This document shows positions 10,873-17,487 of a stretch of DNA of 64,000 nucleotides, piece by piece (within the stretch, counting starts at the first letter, position 1; the number at the start of each line of letters is the position of its first letter). Made by a program: the position numbers and the translations under genes. This DNA is from Candidatus Poribacteria bacterium (GTDB lineage Bacteria > Poribacteria > WGA-4E > WGA-3G), in contig JAJDWI010000112.1 of NCBI GenBank assembly GCA_022825665.1, positions 172-64,171 of the forward strand, given 5' to 3'. The notes beneath the pieces were generated by a model. It saw only the letters and a program-made list of their open reading frames with translations, had not been told where the DNA came from and ran no database searches.

Positions 10873-11814
10873 TTGATAATGTTTAACGGAACTACAACAA
10901 CAGAGATGTCTTCATCTGAACTTGCGAAATGCAGAGAACGCATTAGGCATCAATGGGAAAATAGAAAGGTTGATGAGGCATTACTCCAATGTGCTTGGAA
11001 AGCTGCACAGCGGGTTGCGACTGTGCTTTATCAAAATTATGGGGCGTCGAAAGTCGCTGTCTTCGGTTCTCTCACTGAACGTGATTGTTTCACTGAAAAA
11101 TCCGATATTGATATGGTTGTGTGGGGAGTCTCATATAACAAATGTCTTGATGCACTTTGGGATACTAAAGGTTTAACTACTGAATTCAAAATTGATCTCA
11201 TAGATTTTGAGTCGACGAATGGTCTTTTTCGTCAACGGATTTTGAACCAAGCAATTCCAATTGATAAAGATGTATCAGATATTCATAAATTAATTGAAAA
11301 CGCTTACACTACTTTATATGCTGAAACTGAAGGGGTTTACGTTGTTAATCGGGATAAACTTATTCAACGTATTTCTGATGAACTGACGAAAATTGAAGGA
11401 ACTGTAAAGAGAATTGAAAGAGCATTAGAAAAAATTGATGTGTTACCACATGACGCGAGAGAATTTATAGAAAGAGCACTTGCTGCTGACCTTGCCGAAG
11501 TATATACCGGTTTTGAGAAGATATTTGAACGCATTGCTAATGAAGTTGACAAACATGTTCCGCATGGAAGCCAATGGCATAGCAATTTATTGGCACAAAT
11601 GGCAGCTGGTCGTAGGGAACGTCCACCTGTGATTTCTGATGTCACTCAGCGTAGATTAAAACGGTTGTTAAAATACCGACACAGAGTTACAAACATATAC
11701 GGTGATGAGTTAATTTACTCCAACTCAGAAAAACACGCAAAACGAGTTGGCAAACTCTTTGAAAATATCTCTGAAGAACTAGATACATTCGTCGCTTTTT
11801 TGAGCGAGACGTAA
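10873..11814 (+). CDS. fused MNT-type nucleotidyltransferase / HepT-like HEPN protein (paralogue 1, HEPN His replaced)
   Basis: The N-terminal half has the NTase motif FGSLTERDCFTEKSDIDMVVWG. The C-terminal half has HepT-like blocks (YTGFEKIFERIA, WHSNLL, PPVIS, KYRHRVTNIYG). The true start may be the ATG at 10879. Confidence 0.7.
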   Translation: MIMFNGTTTTEMSSSELAKCRERIRHQWENRKVDEALLQCAWKAAQRVATVLYQNYGASKVAVFGSLTERDCFTEKSDIDMVVWGVSYNKCLDALWDTKGLTTEFKIDLIDFESTNGLFRQRILNQAIPIDKDVSDIHKLIENAYTTLYAETEGVYVVNRDKLIQRISDELTKIEGTVKRIERALEKIDVLPHDAREFIERALAADLAEVYTGFEKIFERIANEVDKHVPHGSQWHSNLLAQMAAGRRERPPVISDVTQRRLKRLLKYRHRVTNIYGDELIYSNSEKHAKRVGKLFENISEELDTFVAFLSET

Positions 11815-13764: not shown

Positions 13765-13804
13765 GATGAACGGTTTCCCGTCTTTTTCTTTGACAAATTT
13801 CACT

Positions 13805-13833
13805 TTGAAAAATCGCTACAGGTGTGCTACAAT
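13805..13833 (+). promoter_or_regulatory. candidate promoter TTGAAA-N17-TACAAT with extended -10 TG
   Basis: ttgaaa at 13805-13810, tgc then tacaat at 13828-13833. It lies ~28 nt upstream of the ATG at 13862. Confidence 0.45.
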
Positions 13834-13861
13834 TCAATATTAATTGAGAAGATATATCAGC

Positions 13862-14098
13862 ATGGATTTTGAAATCGTTGGAGAAATCAAACAAATCGAA
13901 ACAATTGGTCGTGGTAGTTGTCTCCGAAATCACGCGAGGTTACAACGTCAGTACGGTCAAGGTAAGTAGCGTAAGCTAAAGAGAGTAGCATACGTAAGTC
14001 TAATTGATGGTTCAGTCCGACTTACCGAACTCCATTGGTATCAAGTTGACAACATCGGTAAGAGAGAATTTAAGATGAAACTCCCGTTTTTAGATTAA
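13862..14098 (+). pseudogene. small conserved gene interrupted by an in-frame TAG (13967-13969)
   Basis: The frame reads MDFEIVGEIKQIETIGRGSCLRNHARLQRQYGQGK*RKLKRVAYVSLIDGSVRLTELHWYQVDNIGKREFKMKLPFLD. It stays coherent across the stop and ends 2 nt before the next ATG. Confidence 0.6.
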
Positions 14099-14100
14099 AA

Positions 14101-14379
14101 ATGGACACAAAAGATAACCAATTTCCACAATTCGGTCTATGTCTTAATAACGAAGGGTACGCAGCGTCTCTTGAGGTAGGAAAAGTGTATCGTGTCATTT
14201 CTGACGATGATGCAGCGACTCACGGTTATATCCGCGTTATAGATGAAAGCGGCGAGGATTATGCCTACACTGCTAACCGTTTTTACCTAATTCAGTTACC
14301 TATTGATGTTGAAAAGGCGTTGTTATCCCATCCCACTGACATCGAAGCAACCCCTATTCAGGGAATTTCTGGAATCTAA
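14101..14379 (+). CDS. small conserved hypothetical protein (partner of the interrupted upstream gene)
   Basis: 92 aa. The block YRVISDDDAATHGYIRVIDESGEDYAYTANRFYLIQLP resembles a widespread small-protein family that I recall occurring as a two-gene pair. Confidence 0.6.
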   Translation: MDTKDNQFPQFGLCLNNEGYAASLEVGKVYRVISDDDAATHGYIRVIDESGEDYAYTANRFYLIQLPIDVEKALLSHPTDIEATPIQGISGI

Positions 14380-14417
14380 GTCCAAAAGCAATCCTAATTT
14401 CCTTAGGAGACCTAAAC

Positions 14418-14936
14418 ATGCGTTCACTAACAATTTCGTTACCAGACTATCTTTATGAGAAATTAGCACAACAAGCGCAAGCGTATGATACCTCTCTTGA
14501 AGAACTTGTGTTGTTCCAACTCAAACGTGATGAGGTGAGAGATACTGCTTTAGTTTTCTTACAAAAACATGCTGGTAGATGTCTGACCGTCAGAGAACCT
14601 ATCTTTAAGGAAGTTGTTCATCCTATTTGGACAGTTCCCGTTTTTACAAATGTTGTCCCTACCACAGAAGTCGGAGAGATAGCCATTGATGCAGACACAG
14701 GCAAGGTCTTGAGTACAGACAAAGACGTAGCTGAAATGATAAAAAATGGACATCCCAGTTTTGGTTTTGAAACATTTCCTGCGGATAAACAGGAACGCTT
14801 AGCAGAACTCTTGGCATTGAATGGTGAACAACAGTTAGAATCTCAAGCGAAACAGGAAATGGAGACCCTCCTTGCTGAAGAACAAGCACTACAAATCCGA
14901 AATCTGGAAACATTGGAAAAGCGACTTATATCATAG
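14418..14936 (+). CDS. hypothetical protein with RHH-like N-terminus and coiled-coil C-terminus (partner of HNH gene)
   Basis: 172 aa. Good RBS (ttaggaga). The N-terminus is ISLPDYLYEKLAQQA. The C-terminal KQERLAELLALNGEQQL... resembles proteins found upstream of this HNH class. Confidence 0.6.
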   Translation: MRSLTISLPDYLYEKLAQQAQAYDTSLEELVLFQLKRDEVRDTALVFLQKHAGRCLTVREPIFKEVVHPIWTVPVFTNVVPTTEVGEIAIDADTGKVLSTDKDVAEMIKNGHPSFGFETFPADKQERLAELLALNGEQQLESQAKQEMETLLAEEQALQIRNLETLEKRLIS

Positions 14937-14949
14937 CAAGAGGTGAGTT

Positions 14950-15357
14950 TTGCGTGTAGGTGATCCATTTCGTGATAGTATCGTGGACCGCGCTGCAGGT
15001 CAATGTGAATACTGTCATTATCCCGAGCATTTTTCACCTTCTGCATTTGAAGTCGAACATATATTTCCCCGATCTATGGGCGGTAAGACAGAAACCAACA
15101 ATCTTGCCCTCGCTTGTTCACATTGTAATGCTCACAAAGCTACGCGCCAGAAAGGTTACGATTCGCTCACAGAAACTAATGTAAGATTGTTCAACCCAAG
15201 AATAGATAATTGGGAAGTCCATTTTTTCTTGAACCGAGAAACTGGTGAAATACAGGGACAAACGTCTATAGGTCGTGGAACAGTTGAAACACTTCTGATG
15301 AATGCTGAACAACCTGTTCGAGCACGCCATAACTTGATAAAACTTGGGATATTATGA
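14950..15357 (+). CDS. HNH endonuclease
   Basis: CEYCHYP...FEVEHIFPRSMGGKTETNNLALACSHCNAHK plus LFNPR..W..HF. TTG start. Confidence 0.85.
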   Translation: MRVGDPFRDSIVDRAAGQCEYCHYPEHFSPSAFEVEHIFPRSMGGKTETNNLALACSHCNAHKATRQKGYDSLTETNVRLFNPRIDNWEVHFFLNRETGEIQGQTSIGRGTVETLLMNAEQPVRARHNLIKLGIL

Positions 15358-15396: not shown

Positions 15397-15425
15397 TTGA
15401 ATTCTAAACCGTATCATGCTATCCT
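15397..15425 (+). promoter_or_regulatory. candidate promoter TTGAAT-N17-TATCCT with extended -10 TG
   Basis: ttgaat at 15397-15402, tgc then tatcct at 15420-15425. It lies 21 nt upstream of the ATG at 15447. Confidence 0.4.
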
Positions 15426-15446
15426 ATTCTCATAGGAGATCGTGAT

Positions 15447-16340
15447 ATGCACCAACCCACAGATACCCATCGCACAGCAAAAGACCTATCACCAGAAGAA
15501 CTCAAGGAATACCGTAAACGTCTTGACCAGCACTTTCAAAATCGGAAAGTGGATAAAGCATTGCTGCAGCGCGCGTGGCAAACCGCACACAAGATAGCAG
15601 CCATGCTCTACGAAGATTTCGGTGCTACGAAGGTTGCGATATTTGGTTCGCTTGTGGATAAGGTCCGGTTCACAAAATGGTCGGACATTGATATTGCAGT
15701 CTGGGGAATACCTGCCGATAGATATTTTAGTGCCCTTTGGCAAGCTGAAGAAATTAGTGGATTATTTAAAGTTAACTTAGTTGATTTTGAGAATTGTAAT
15801 AGTCTATTTCGTGAACGAATTCAGAACCAAATTATTTATATTGAACAAGGGAAAATCTATAAAGTGGACAGAATCGGACTTTTTGAGCGTATTTCCGATG
15901 AACGAAAGAAAATCGGAGAAACTGTAGAAAAAATAGGTGCAAGATTAGAAAAGATTAAAACTACTCCCATAGAGTACAGAGAAGAAATAGAGACAACAAT
16001 TGCCAAGAATCTTGTTGATTGTTACCAAGGTATGGAAAGTATTTTTAGACGAATTGCACTTGATGTTGACTTACATATACCTGATGGAAGCAGGTGGCAT
16101 AAAGAATTACTTATGCAAATGGCGGCGCAACAGGATGAACGTCAACCTGTGATTTCACAAGAAACTTTAGAACTACTGCAAGAGTTATTAGAATTTCGAC
16201 ATGTATTTAATCATATCTACGGCGAAGAACTGGTCTACGAAAAAACTGAACAAAATGCCATTAAGATAGAAATGTTGTTTAACAAAATATCAAAAGAACT
16301 TGACGACTTCATAGACTACTTAAAAAATGAAAATGAGTGA
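15447..16340 (+). CDS. fused MNT-type nucleotidyltransferase / HepT-like HEPN protein (paralogue 2, Rx4H intact)
   Basis: NTase motif FGSLVDKVRFTKWSDIDIAVWG. HEPN motif EFRHVFNHIYG (R 16197-16199, H 16212-16214). Collinear with 10873-11814. Confidence 0.7.
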   Translation: MHQPTDTHRTAKDLSPEELKEYRKRLDQHFQNRKVDKALLQRAWQTAHKIAAMLYEDFGATKVAIFGSLVDKVRFTKWSDIDIAVWGIPADRYFSALWQAEEISGLFKVNLVDFENCNSLFRERIQNQIIYIEQGKIYKVDRIGLFERISDERKKIGETVEKIGARLEKIKTTPIEYREEIETTIAKNLVDCYQGMESIFRRIALDVDLHIPDGSRWHKELLMQMAAQQDERQPVISQETLELLQELLEFRHVFNHIYGEELVYEKTEQNAIKIEMLFNKISKELDDFIDYLKNENE

Positions 16341-17487
16341 ACAGACTCTCCTACAACAGATGAATGACTTCTGCCGATTGCTACGACAGATGGACATTAA
16401 TGTCACAACAACTAATCAACTCAGTTGGTGTTACAGTATTCAGTTAATTGACATAAGTGAAAAAGAAGCATTTTACCATACGGCACGCACGAACCTAATT
16501 GCTAACCAAACAGACCGCAAGACATTTGACACTGCTTTTAATTTATTTTGGCAATACCCGCGACCCGAATTCCACGCCATTGATACAGGTGGTGAAGAAC
16601 CAGAATCTTCCGCACTACAAGATATTTCTGATGCAGATGATCAGGATAATATCCTTGAACAATGGATAGATTATGAGGAAGATGATCAGAAAGGACAAGA
16701 AGACGACCCTATCGCATATAGTGTGGAAGAAATCCTAACAAAGAAGGATTTTAGTGAGTTTACTGAGGAAGACATGAAGAGAGCGCGATCTATTATCGCA
16801 AAATTAGCACAGATTTTATCCACAAGACTTAGTAGACGAAAGGTTTTCAGCAAAAAAGGGAAGGTAATTGACTTTAGAAGAAGTTGGCGAAAAAGCCTTG
16901 CACACGGAGGTGAACCGATTACGCTCATGCGGAAACAGCAGAAGATCAAAAAGACAAAAATTTTACTTCTATGTGATGTAAGTGGATCTATGGATTGTTA
17001 TGCCAAATTTCTTATCCAATTTATATACGGCATGCAGCAAGAGTTGAGAGAAGTAGAGGTAGCAGTATTCAGCACACACTTGACCAACATTACAGGACTA
17101 CTTCAACGGAAAGGATTAGCAGAGGGATTAAATGAAGTGGCAAATATTGTTCCAGACTGGTCAGGTGGCACAAAAATTGGTGAAAGTCTGTTAGAATTTT
17201 GTCGTCAGTTTGCTCCATCTTTTTCGGCATATCGTTCAGTCGTTATTCTCATCAGCGATGGTTGGGATAGGGGTGATGCCGATCTGCTACGGCGATCTAT
17301 GGAGATGCTGAATCGACATGCATATAAACTCATTTGGCTCAATCCGTTACTCGGAAGTGATACATATCAACCGATATGTCGTGGTATCAGAACTGCACTA
17401 CCGTATGTAGACTATTTTCTTCCCGCACATAATTTAGAGAGTTTAGCACAACTGACAAAGGTTTTAATCCCACTTTGGGCAAGTTGA
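16327..17487 (+). CDS. CoxE-like von Willebrand factor A domain protein
   Basis: 386 aa with MIDAS motif LLCDVSGSMD. Overall it looks like the VWA_CoxE family. Its start overlaps the upstream gene by 14 nt. Confidence 0.75.
   Translation: MKMSEQTLLQQMNDFCRLLRQMDINVTTTNQLSWCYSIQLIDISEKEAFYHTARTNLIANQTDRKTFDTAFNLFWQYPRPEFHAIDTGGEEPESSALQDISDADDQDNILEQWIDYEEDDQKGQEDDPIAYSVEEILTKKDFSEFTEEDMKRARSIIAKLAQILSTRLSRRKVFSKKGKVIDFRRSWRKSLAHGGEPITLMRKQQKIKKTKILLLCDVSGSMDCYAKFLIQFIYGMQQELREVEVAVFSTHLTNITGLLQRKGLAEGLNEVANIVPDWSGGTKIGESLLEFCRQFAPSFSAYRSVVILISDGWDRGDADLLRRSMEMLNRHAYKLIWLNPLLGSDTYQPICRGIRTALPYVDYFLPAHNLESLAQLTKVLIPLWAS

Follow-up and report, generated by a model that had tools for sequence, protein, structure and literature searches.

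In the two-gene HepT/MntA system, the tyrosine of the HepT motif RX4HXY (Y104 in SO_3166) receives AMPs, and D71 of MntA coordinates the second Mg2+ (PMC7641770). HEPN domains are "occasionally fused to MNT" (minimal nucleotidyltransferase) domains (Anantharaman et al., PMC3710099), and one fused MNT-HEPN protein, FhepTA (SO_1440), was characterized in prophage CP4So of Shewanella oneidensis (Yao et al., NAR 2026, PMC13000451). We analyzed a fused gene of this kind in a 64,000-nucleotide stretch of a Candidatus Poribacteria contig, here called the window. A sequence-only reading of the window had pointed to an antitoxin and a toxin in one chain; the architecture was already published (PMC13000451, PMC3710099), and the cis-fused MNT-HEPN is not new in kind.

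The single-chain protein and its relatives

The fused gene lies on the + strand at 15447 to 16340 and encodes 297 amino acids (aa) (ORF listing, Pfam, AF2, and Foldseek). Its MNT domain, at residues ∼9 to 131 (15471 to 15839), was delimited by Pfam Polbeta, stand-alone relatives, and the family profile, and its HEPN (HepT-like_2) domain of five helices, at residues ∼143 to 295 (15873 to 16331), by Pfam PF20797, AF2, and Foldseek. Pfam matched the Polbeta nucleotidyltransferase (NTase) family at residues 49 to 131 (30.5 bits against a cut-off of 26.9) and PF20797 at residues 185 to 291 (99.5 bits; E = 1.5e-28). The C-terminal half scores as HepT-like, and with VWA_CoxE in the second ORF (see below), the nucleotidyltransferase, HEPN, and vWA domains that the earlier reading had proposed for the two ORFs were found. 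The AF2 model (pLDDT of 86) places the helices of the HEPN half at residues 143 to 172, 175 to 208, 217 to 226, 238 to 256, and 264 to 295. In Foldseek searches, the N half resembled the MNT antitoxins 8xeo, 1no5, and 7bxo, and the C half resembled the HEPN toxins 7ae6, 7ae8, and 5yep_C (TMt of 0.73 to 0.75 for 7ae6 and 7ae8). When the family profile was compared to the PDB, the MNT half matched 1wot (E = 2e-8) and MntA (5yep_A; E = 8e-8), but the HEPN half was not picked up, and no HepT chain was matched; a PDB search with the single fused sequence returned only noise. There was no Pfam match to PF01934 (DUF86) at E ≤ 0.1.

The 297-aa ORF does encode MNT and HEPN halves in a single chain. We found 129 intact fused copies in Candidatus Poribacteria, and because of these, an assembly artifact, missed stop, or frameshift is ruled out as the source of the fusion, though split relatives do exist elsewhere (representatives of ∼125 aa plus ∼160 aa). 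Stand-alone relatives of ∼120 to 130 aa align to residues 9 to 128 of the fused protein, and those of ∼160 aa align to residues 143 to 295. One distant Poribacteria genome has a split pair of 118 and 160 aa with a 4-nucleotide (nt) overlap, and a pair of 123 and 159 aa adjoins defense-type genes on a Pseudanabaena plasmid. The best 80 loci in the related-locus search were all from Poribacteria, so the contexts in other phyla come from plasmids and cluster names only.

Like FhepTA, the protein is one polypeptide in which an N-terminal MNT with GS...DXD is joined by a short linker to a C-terminal HEPN with R-x4-H and an adjacent Tyr; the sizes are similar (276 aa for FhepTA), and both have close split two-gene relatives. 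Unlike FhepTA, with SO_1440 compared by its description, the HEPN half belongs to PF20797 (HepT-like_2) rather than to HepT's DUF86/PF01934. Because of this, and because the PDB profile matched no HepT chain, the 297-aa fusion probably arose independently of FhepTA. The protein shares with HepT/MntA the folds of both halves (Foldseek), the transferase motif GS-X10/11-DXD, and an RX4HXY register identical to that of the published HepT motif, but it is one chain rather than two and scored only 28.9 bits against the NCBIfam MntA equivalog NF047752 (curated cut-off, 60 bits). KNTase, AadA, and LinB likewise have an NTase followed, N to C in one chain, by a helical domain of the HEPN clan. However, their whole-chain TM-scores to the fused protein were only 0.19 to 0.23, and their C-terminal domains are entirely without the R...H...Y motif.

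Catalytic residues, expansion, and turnover

Both catalytic motifs proposed earlier, GS-x11-DIDIAV and RX4HXY, can be read in the 297-aa protein. The first (GS-X11-DID at residues 67 to 82; 15645 to 15692) comprises G67, S68, D80, and D82, which are invariant in 129/129 fused copies. The metal triad of MntA (D39/D41/D71) is nevertheless incomplete in this copy: D80 and D82 are kept, but the third metal-binding Asp, which aligns with MntA D71, is replaced by N110 (AAC; 15774 to 15776). Of the 129 copies, 124 have Asp here, and Asn occurs only in the 297-aa copy and its two closest orthologues. The Asn, which also sets the protein apart from FhepTA, may impair AMPylation in this copy.

The HEPN motif reads R251-H252-V-F-N-H256-I-Y258 (16197 to 16220). 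Among the 129 copies, the Arg is conserved in 126, H252 in 116, and Y258 in 120, and position 256 is N in 87, Y in 22, H in 12, and R in 6. The canonical Rx4H histidine is thus kept in the 297-aa copy but in just 12/129 Poribacteria copies, a variability across the clade that is unlike FhepTA. Since N is as frequent as H at position 256 in the wider family, split and fused forms together, a canonical HEPN RNase is not the conserved feature. Three further residues of the HEPN half, Y193, D208, and R232, vary little or not at all, and the other conserved family residues are all intact in the 297-aa copy.

Fused copies number 1 to 7 per genome in 78/81 genomes of one Poribacteria family and 0 or 1 in other genomes; the expansion of the gene is largely confined to this sponge-associated family. 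The copies include tandem arrays and fragments, and some are pseudogenes interrupted by internal stops. The allele in the window is a mosaic: nt 15684 to 16275 have 53 to 68% identity to a relative whose flanks are 93 to 97% identical, and dS is discordant along the gene. In comparisons with the two nearest orthologues, omega is 0.13 to 0.17 (about 0.15) along the full length of the ORF, its HEPN part included, versus 0.02 to 0.09 for flanking genes. In this uncultivated sponge symbiont, single-chain MNT-HEPN cassettes have undergone a large and well-documented expansion that is specific to the lineage, with alleles being shuffled and the canonical catalytic His eroding.

A paralogous fused MNT-HEPN gene in the window (10873 to 11814, + strand; 313 aa, motif RHRVTNIY) ends 6 nt before a DUF6785/DUF6784 membrane-protein gene and falls in a separate, stable clade of DUF6785-adjacent copies. 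A variable island of small genes (13765 to 15357, + strand) separates the DUF6785 gene from the cassette; it holds a 92-aa ORF, a 172-aa RHH-like ORF, and an HNH endonuclease gene (14950 to 15357). The close relative L070 has no such island, L025 has it in rearranged form, and in other genomes its position is held by PemK or by additional fused copies. We also considered whether the island derives from a prophage or plasmid but found nothing to indicate this, and the fused family matched no entry of the phage collection that we searched. In contrast to FhepTA, which is found in prophages or mobile islands, the Poribacteria copies are chromosomal, occupy fixed slots, and have expanded to many copies. 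These cassettes are less obviously mobile than FhepTA.

The CoxE-type vWA gene and its expression

The downstream gene, at 16327 to 17487 on the + strand, encodes 386 aa when counted from its first ATG. Its earlier assignment as a CoxE-type vWA gene with the MIDAS motif DVSGS was borne out: Pfam matched VWA_CoxE at residues 159 to 373 (190 bits; E = 4e-56), and the MIDAS motif (DxSxS...T...D) is intact, with DVSGS at residues 217 to 221 (16975 to 16989), the Thr in SGGTKIG (17161 to 17181), and the Asp in LISDGWD (17248 to 17268). The two ORFs overlap, as had been noted. The overlap had been given as 14 nt, but a junction alignment showed that the start kept in relatives is the second ATG, at 16333, which reduces it to the 8 nt of ATGAGTGA (16333 to 16340, + strand), where the vWA start lies over the stop of the fused gene. 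This stop/start overlap is kept in 46/59 loci that carry the vWA gene, which could reflect selection for coexpression. The vWA gene is a single-copy orthologue in 102/121 genomes of the phylum.

Upstream of the fused gene is a promoter-like element (15397 to 15425, + strand) consisting of a −35 TTGAAT (15397 to 15402), a 17-nt spacer, and an extended −10 TGcTATCCT (15417 to 15425). The composite pattern TTGnnn-N14-TGnTAnnCT-...-GGAG-...-ATG occurred 54 times in 48/80 Poribacteria sequences, always on the + strand and never on the reverse strand (1.04 Mb). A generic promoter scan scored the candidate promoter proposed earlier below threshold (8/12 consensus positions), and the total number of sites in that scan was not above the shuffled expectation; the element is nevertheless conserved. 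A Shine-Dalgarno sequence, AGGAGA (15434 to 15439, + strand), lies 7 nt before the ATG, and AAGGAGA precedes nearly every fused copy, including tandem copies that have no promoter. In genome G105 the fused ORF has been cut to an 11-codon remnant, and the element is still present before the vWA gene. The vWA gene thus appears to receive both a conserved promoter and its stop/start overlap from the cassette; we infer promoter activity and translational coupling from the conserved element and the overlap.

As had been stated, a MoxR/CoxD ATPase is missing from the window, and no AAA_3 or AAA_5 gene is present on its contig (C93). The vWA had for this reason been called an orphan, a description that does not hold at the level of the genome. 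A 297-aa AAA+ ATPase (AAA_5; MadB-like, 266 bits) is encoded on contig C44, where it follows a gene whose product scored 170 bits as a MocA-like cytidylyltransferase (cut-off, 186), and the ATPase and the vWA have identical patterns of presence and absence in 121/121 genomes. In G014 and other genomes of the sister families f2 and f3, the ATPase gene adjoins the vWA gene. In functional terms, the vWA is no orphan. With its VWA_CoxE domain, its intact MIDAS, and an AAA_5 ATPase beside a MocA-like gene, the set resembles a CoxD/CoxE (MadB/MadC-like) pair, although both proteins fall far short of the Mad equivalog cut-offs of NCBIfam. It differs from such a pair in that the two genes are unlinked in the Poribacteria family and the vWA gene appears to be transcribed with an unrelated cassette. 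Bearing on a possible role in molybdenum hydroxylase (CODH/XDH) maturation are the MocA-like neighbor of the ATPase gene and three MoCoBD_1 large-subunit genes on other contigs, with no direct linkage.

Probable origin and function of the cassette

The explanation that we favor, and consider fairly likely, is that the fused gene is a dispensable cassette derived from a toxin-antitoxin module, that its MNT half holds the HEPN half inactive, and that the vWA gene is a neighbor borrowing a promoter and not a partner. Two-gene MNT/HEPN (type VII-like) modules would have given rise to a single-chain protein, and the 297-aa ORF would be one of many dispensable, duplicating, recombining cassettes that expanded in the sponge-associated family. 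HepT/MntA and FhepTA suggest, by analogy, that the N-terminal transferase most likely keeps the HEPN inactive by AMPylating Tyr258 beside R251-x4-H256, by sterically blocking HEPN dimerization, or by both; because the third metal ligand is Asn in the 297-aa copy, steric control may outweigh AMPylation there. An RNase would then be set free when ATP runs low, when the protein is proteolyzed, or in response to a cue from an invader. Both AMPylation and RNase toxicity are predictions drawn from these described systems. The vWA would work with the MadB/CoxD-like ATPase encoded elsewhere, whose place beside the MocA-like gene is probably what is left of a mocA-ATPase-vWA operon preserved in the sister families. 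A housekeeping CoxE-like vWA gene would then have lost its operon and, in this lineage, would now be driven by the cassette's promoter and its overlapping stop/start. Weighing against the favored explanation are the rarity of the canonical His among the Poribacteria copies, N110 in the transferase, the fixed chromosomal slots of copies that matched nothing in the phage collection, and the conserved overlap with the vWA gene.

The two genes might instead form a functional system, for example a defense or regulatory module in which the vWA acts as the sensor, or a means of controlling molybdoenzyme maturation by AMPylation. The shared promoter and the conservation of the stop/start overlap, even where a different paralogue is upstream, speak for such a system. 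A survey of the fused family and the vWA, as the sequence-only reading had proposed, speaks against it: the two are discordant in 21/121 genomes, of which at least 15 have the vWA but no PF20797 gene and 6 have fused genes but no vWA. In L094, L095, and L099, only fragments of the fused gene remain, yet the vWA gene behind them is intact. Several paralogue clades hold the vWA-adjacent slot, which requires 12 or more label changes on the tree, and these copies are polyphyletic; the two other paralogues of the window's genome and the outgroup copies adjoin unrelated genes, and it is the ATPase that the vWA tracks perfectly. On co-occurrence and phylogeny, we rejected a functional partnership, which we consider very improbable. 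Only slightly less improbable is that the ORF is an inert, decaying remnant, whose reading frame persists only because vWA expression requires its promoter and 3′ end. Such decay would fit the many sister copies that are fragmentary or contain stops, N110 at a catalytic position, the L070 copy, whose ORF is intact and whose HEPN motif has degenerated to RNLFINTP, and the persistence of the promoter in G105 without the ORF. It does not fit the low dN/dS over the whole ORF or the intactness of the remaining conserved family residues.

A stronger competitor, though still unlikely, is a domesticated regulatory NTase whose HEPN half is a noncatalytic domain that binds substrate or nucleotide (as in KNTase, GlnE, and HI0073/HI0074); the enzyme would then modify a different acceptor, a small molecule or a protein, by nucleotidylation, and would be no toxin. 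The contrast between the four invariant transferase residues and the rarity of the canonical HEPN His favors it, as do purifying selection and weak whole-chain Foldseek matches to AadA, LinB, and ANT(6). The near-invariant Y193, D208, and R232 could form a binding pocket, and MNT-fused HEPN domains typically are without RNase residues and domesticated (Anantharaman et al., PMC3710099). However, it would be unusual for a housekeeping enzyme to vary in copy number, form tandem arrays, decay into pseudogenes, and swap alleles, and the TM-scores to aminoglycoside NTases are low. In addition, Y258, at the position of the AMP acceptor in HepT, is widely kept, and the 297-aa copy shows the reverse pattern, having kept H256 and lost the third carboxylate of the transferase.

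Two further ideas are, taken jointly, improbable. In the first, the cassette is no mere bystander. After the breakup of the mocA-ATPase-vWA operon, expression of the vWA might have come to depend on the cassette, through its promoter and its terminating ribosomes; if so, molybdoenzyme maturation would be tied to a toxin-antitoxin-like switch, and the cassette would be shielded from loss. Separately, R-H-x3-[N/H]-x-Y might be an alternative HEPN active site, in which the His right after the Arg stands in for the canonical distal His. The natural series of H, N, and Y at the Rx4H position, together with the D-to-N variant at the third metal ligand, is usable for work on the control of fused MNT-HEPN proteins.

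The fused gene and its product

Both open reading frames (ORFs) proposed from sequence alone were borne out: a fused gene at 15447..16340 (+), encoding a minimal nucleotidyltransferase (MNT) and a HEPN domain in a single chain of 297 amino acids (aa), and a CoxE-type vWA gene at 16327..17487 (+), encoding 386 aa from its first ATG. Pfam profiles matched aa 49-131 of the fused protein to the Polbeta-type minimal nucleotidyltransferase (30.5 bits versus a cut-off of 26.9) and the second ORF to VWA_CoxE (190 bits). The C-terminal half of the fused protein is indeed HepT-like, aa 185-291 matching HepT-like_2 (PF20797; 99.5 bits, E=1.5e-28). The motifs GS-X11-DID (aa 67-82) and R251-HVFN-H256-I-Y258 in the fused protein, and the MIDAS motif DVSGS in the vWA protein, can be read off the sequence. 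There was no Pfam match of the fused protein to HepT proper (PF01934); the MntA equivalog of NCBIfam scored 28.9 bits, under its cut-off of 60, and in PADLOC the MNT half matched only the candidate system PDC-S09, and that weakly.

An AlphaFold2 model of the fused protein, computed with 30 family sequences as input, had a mean pLDDT of 86. When the model was compared with the PDB by Foldseek, the N half resembled the MNT antitoxins 8xeo, HI0073 (1no5), and MntA (7bxo), and the C half resembled 7ae6 and 7ae8 (TMt 0.73-0.75) and SO_3166 (5yep_C), all of them HEPN toxins from MNT-HEPN systems; whole-chain matches to AadA, LinB, and ANT(6) were poor (TM about 0.2). In a search of representative sequences, stand-alone relatives of two sizes aligned, those of about 120-130 aa to residues 9-128 and those of about 155-165 aa to residues 143-295. 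Model, structure matches, and stand-alone relatives together place the MNT domain at about aa 9-131 and the HEPN domain at about aa 143-295, with a linker of about 10 residues between them.

The fusion is not due to a stop codon or frameshift missed in this assembly. The protein has more than 100 orthologues (294-305 aa, 69-88% identity), all named Candidatus Poribacteria, and the 129 intact fused copies that we took from 79 related Poribacteria loci as the family set rule out an assembly artefact. Nor is the architecture new. Anantharaman et al. 2013 (PMC3710099) listed HEPN-M as "occasionally fused to MNT" and argued that HEPNs in such fusions have often lost activity and been domesticated. 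Yao et al. 2026 (PMC13000451) characterized the fused protein FhepTA (SO_1440), in which a Tyr beside the RNase motif is self-oligoAMPylated and the MNT domain inhibits HEPN dimerization. Thus, the sequence-only reading described the gene correctly, but its two claims of novelty, the cis-fusion and an orphan vWA gene (discussed below), both fail. The gene is a further example of a known fused MNT-HEPN type, differing from FhepTA in its HEPN subfamily and its unusual host lineage. By analogy, the protein most likely works like FhepTA; its RNase competence and, in the window copy, its transferase competence are putative.

Catalytic residues across the family

Among the 129 copies, G67, S68, D80, and D82 (numbered as in the window's protein) are invariant. 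The position matching MntA D71, which is the third ligand of the second Mg2+ (PMC7641770), is Asp in 124 copies and Asn in the window copy and its two nearest orthologues. In the HEPN half, R251 is kept in 126 copies, H252 in 116, and Y258 in 120. The "intact Rx4HxY" first reported holds for the window copy but is a minority state in the family: at the canonical histidine position, 87 copies have N, 22 have Y, only 12 have H, and 6 have R. Among fused and split members of the wider family alike, N and H are about equally common at this site, and the family motif is therefore R-H-x-x-x-[N/H]-x-Y. The proximal His could stand in for the distal His in the R-H...N variants, since motif positions 2 and 6 are one helical turn apart.

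Copies, arrays, and recombination

The window's genome has three fused copies. In addition to that at 15447..16340, a 313-aa paralogue at 10873..11814 (+; motif RHRVTNIY, with Asn in place of the canonical His) stops 6 nucleotides (nt) short of a DUF6785/DUF6784 membrane-protein gene, and a 329-aa paralogue (RHKVDNIY) lies on contig C80 (L006:1474-2463, minus strand). The C80 copy is followed after 13 nt by an SDR gene, and it overlaps an ABC ATPase gene at the end of the latter. Across the 121 genomes of the phylum surveyed, PF20797 occurred 1 to 7 times per genome in 78 of the window family's 81 other genomes, and 0 to 1 times in other Poribacteria families.

At related loci, the DUF6785 gene and a conserved vWA-ADH-prenyltransferase-like block are separated by 1 to 5 tandem fused genes, frequently 31 nt apart, together with fused-gene fragments, copies with internal stops, and small accessory genes (e.g., PemK and HNH). 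When the 129 copies were placed on a tree, those adjacent to DUF6785 grouped in a single stable clade, which is separate and occurs in the majority of related genomes, though not in every one; copies directly upstream of vWA belong to several clades, and the well-supported branches require at least 12 label changes. In the window, a small-gene island at 13765-15357 (a 92-aa ORF, a 172-aa RHH-like ORF, and a PtuB-like HNH endonuclease) is a variable slot: it is rearranged in L025, and L070, a close relative, lacks it (425 bp versus 1.6 kb).

Compared with L070, nucleotide identity is 93-97% in the flanks and 95-97% over the opening 240 nt of the fused gene, versus only 53-68% for nt 15684-16275. 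Because dS along the gene is discordant between comparisons, the fused gene appears to be a recombinant mosaic. The L070 ORF (L070:6001-6900) is intact in near-identical surroundings, with about 600 strongly divergent nt in its middle, its HEPN signature decayed to RNLFINTP, and WH replaced; the divergence is either an allele swap or runaway divergence. The dN/dS values (0.13-0.17 for the fused gene versus 0.02-0.09 for the vWA, ADH, and DUF6785 genes) indicate purifying selection that is several-fold more relaxed on the fused gene.

Outgroup fused copies have unrelated gene surroundings. One (L105, G047:C1, 6974-8806) is broken into an MNT piece of 123 aa and a HEPN piece of 109 aa by a 333-aa ORF, probably an insertion-sequence transposase. 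One distant Poribacteria genome has a split 118+160-aa pair. Distant relatives occur in cyanobacteria, including an overlapping 123+159-aa gene pair adjoining defence-type genes on a Pseudanabaena plasmid; none were found in the phage collection searched.

The vWA gene, its ATPase, and the cassette junction

No AAA_3/AAA_5 gene is present on the window's contig. However, the vWA gene is no functional orphan: contig C44 of the same genome encodes a 297-aa, MadB-like AAA_5 ATPase (266 bits) directly 3' of a MocA-like cytidylyltransferase. In G014, a sister-family genome, the MocA-like, ATPase, and vWA genes are contiguous in that order; the ATPase there shares 78% identity with its C44 counterpart, and the vWA protein 66% with that of the window. 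But for one exception, ATPase and vWA genes adjoin each other in the sister families f2 and f3; in the window's family, hundreds of kilobases separate them. Their presence agrees in 121/121 genomes, the same 102 having both and the same 19 neither. The fused family and vWA, by comparison, disagree in 21/121 genomes (15 with vWA only, 6 with the fused gene only), and at L094, L095, and L099 an intact vWA gene lies downstream of mere fused-gene fragments. On this evidence the vWA protein belongs with the C44 ATPase, as its unlinked partner, and not with the MNT-HEPN protein.

On C44 (L023:707-2286), the cytidylyltransferase and MadB/CoxD-like ATPase genes form a pair without vWA, and the last 17 nt of the ATPase gene overlap a permease-like gene. 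In the window's genus, both ATPase and vWA have been lost from four genomes.

The fused gene and vWA do overlap, a feature that 46 of 59 loci retain, but the extent of the overlap was probably overstated. Most relatives have AAG or AGG in place of the first vWA ATG (16327); the start kept is the second ATG (16333), the likely true start, which with the stop of the fused gene gives ATGAGTGA. A promoter-like element (TTGAAT, 17 nt, TGcTATCCT) lies at 15397-15425 (+). This element and an AAGGAGA Shine-Dalgarno (SD) sequence precede the first copy of an array (48/80 sequences); this combination was never found on the opposite strand of the same sequences. Downstream tandem copies keep the SD sequence and lack the element. 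In G105, a genome with no PF20797 match, a -10/SD element and an 11-codon remnant stand in frame directly before vWA. There (L111, G105:C4, about 1441-1503), a clean deletion inside the fused gene leaves MVHRDHLKNRK, interpreted as the joined start and end of the fused ORF. We infer that in the window's lineage vWA is transcribed from the putative promoter of the cassette (element plus fused gene) and is probably translated by coupling to the fused gene. The CoxE-type vWA gene would then be a positional neighbor that has captured the cassette's predicted expression signals.
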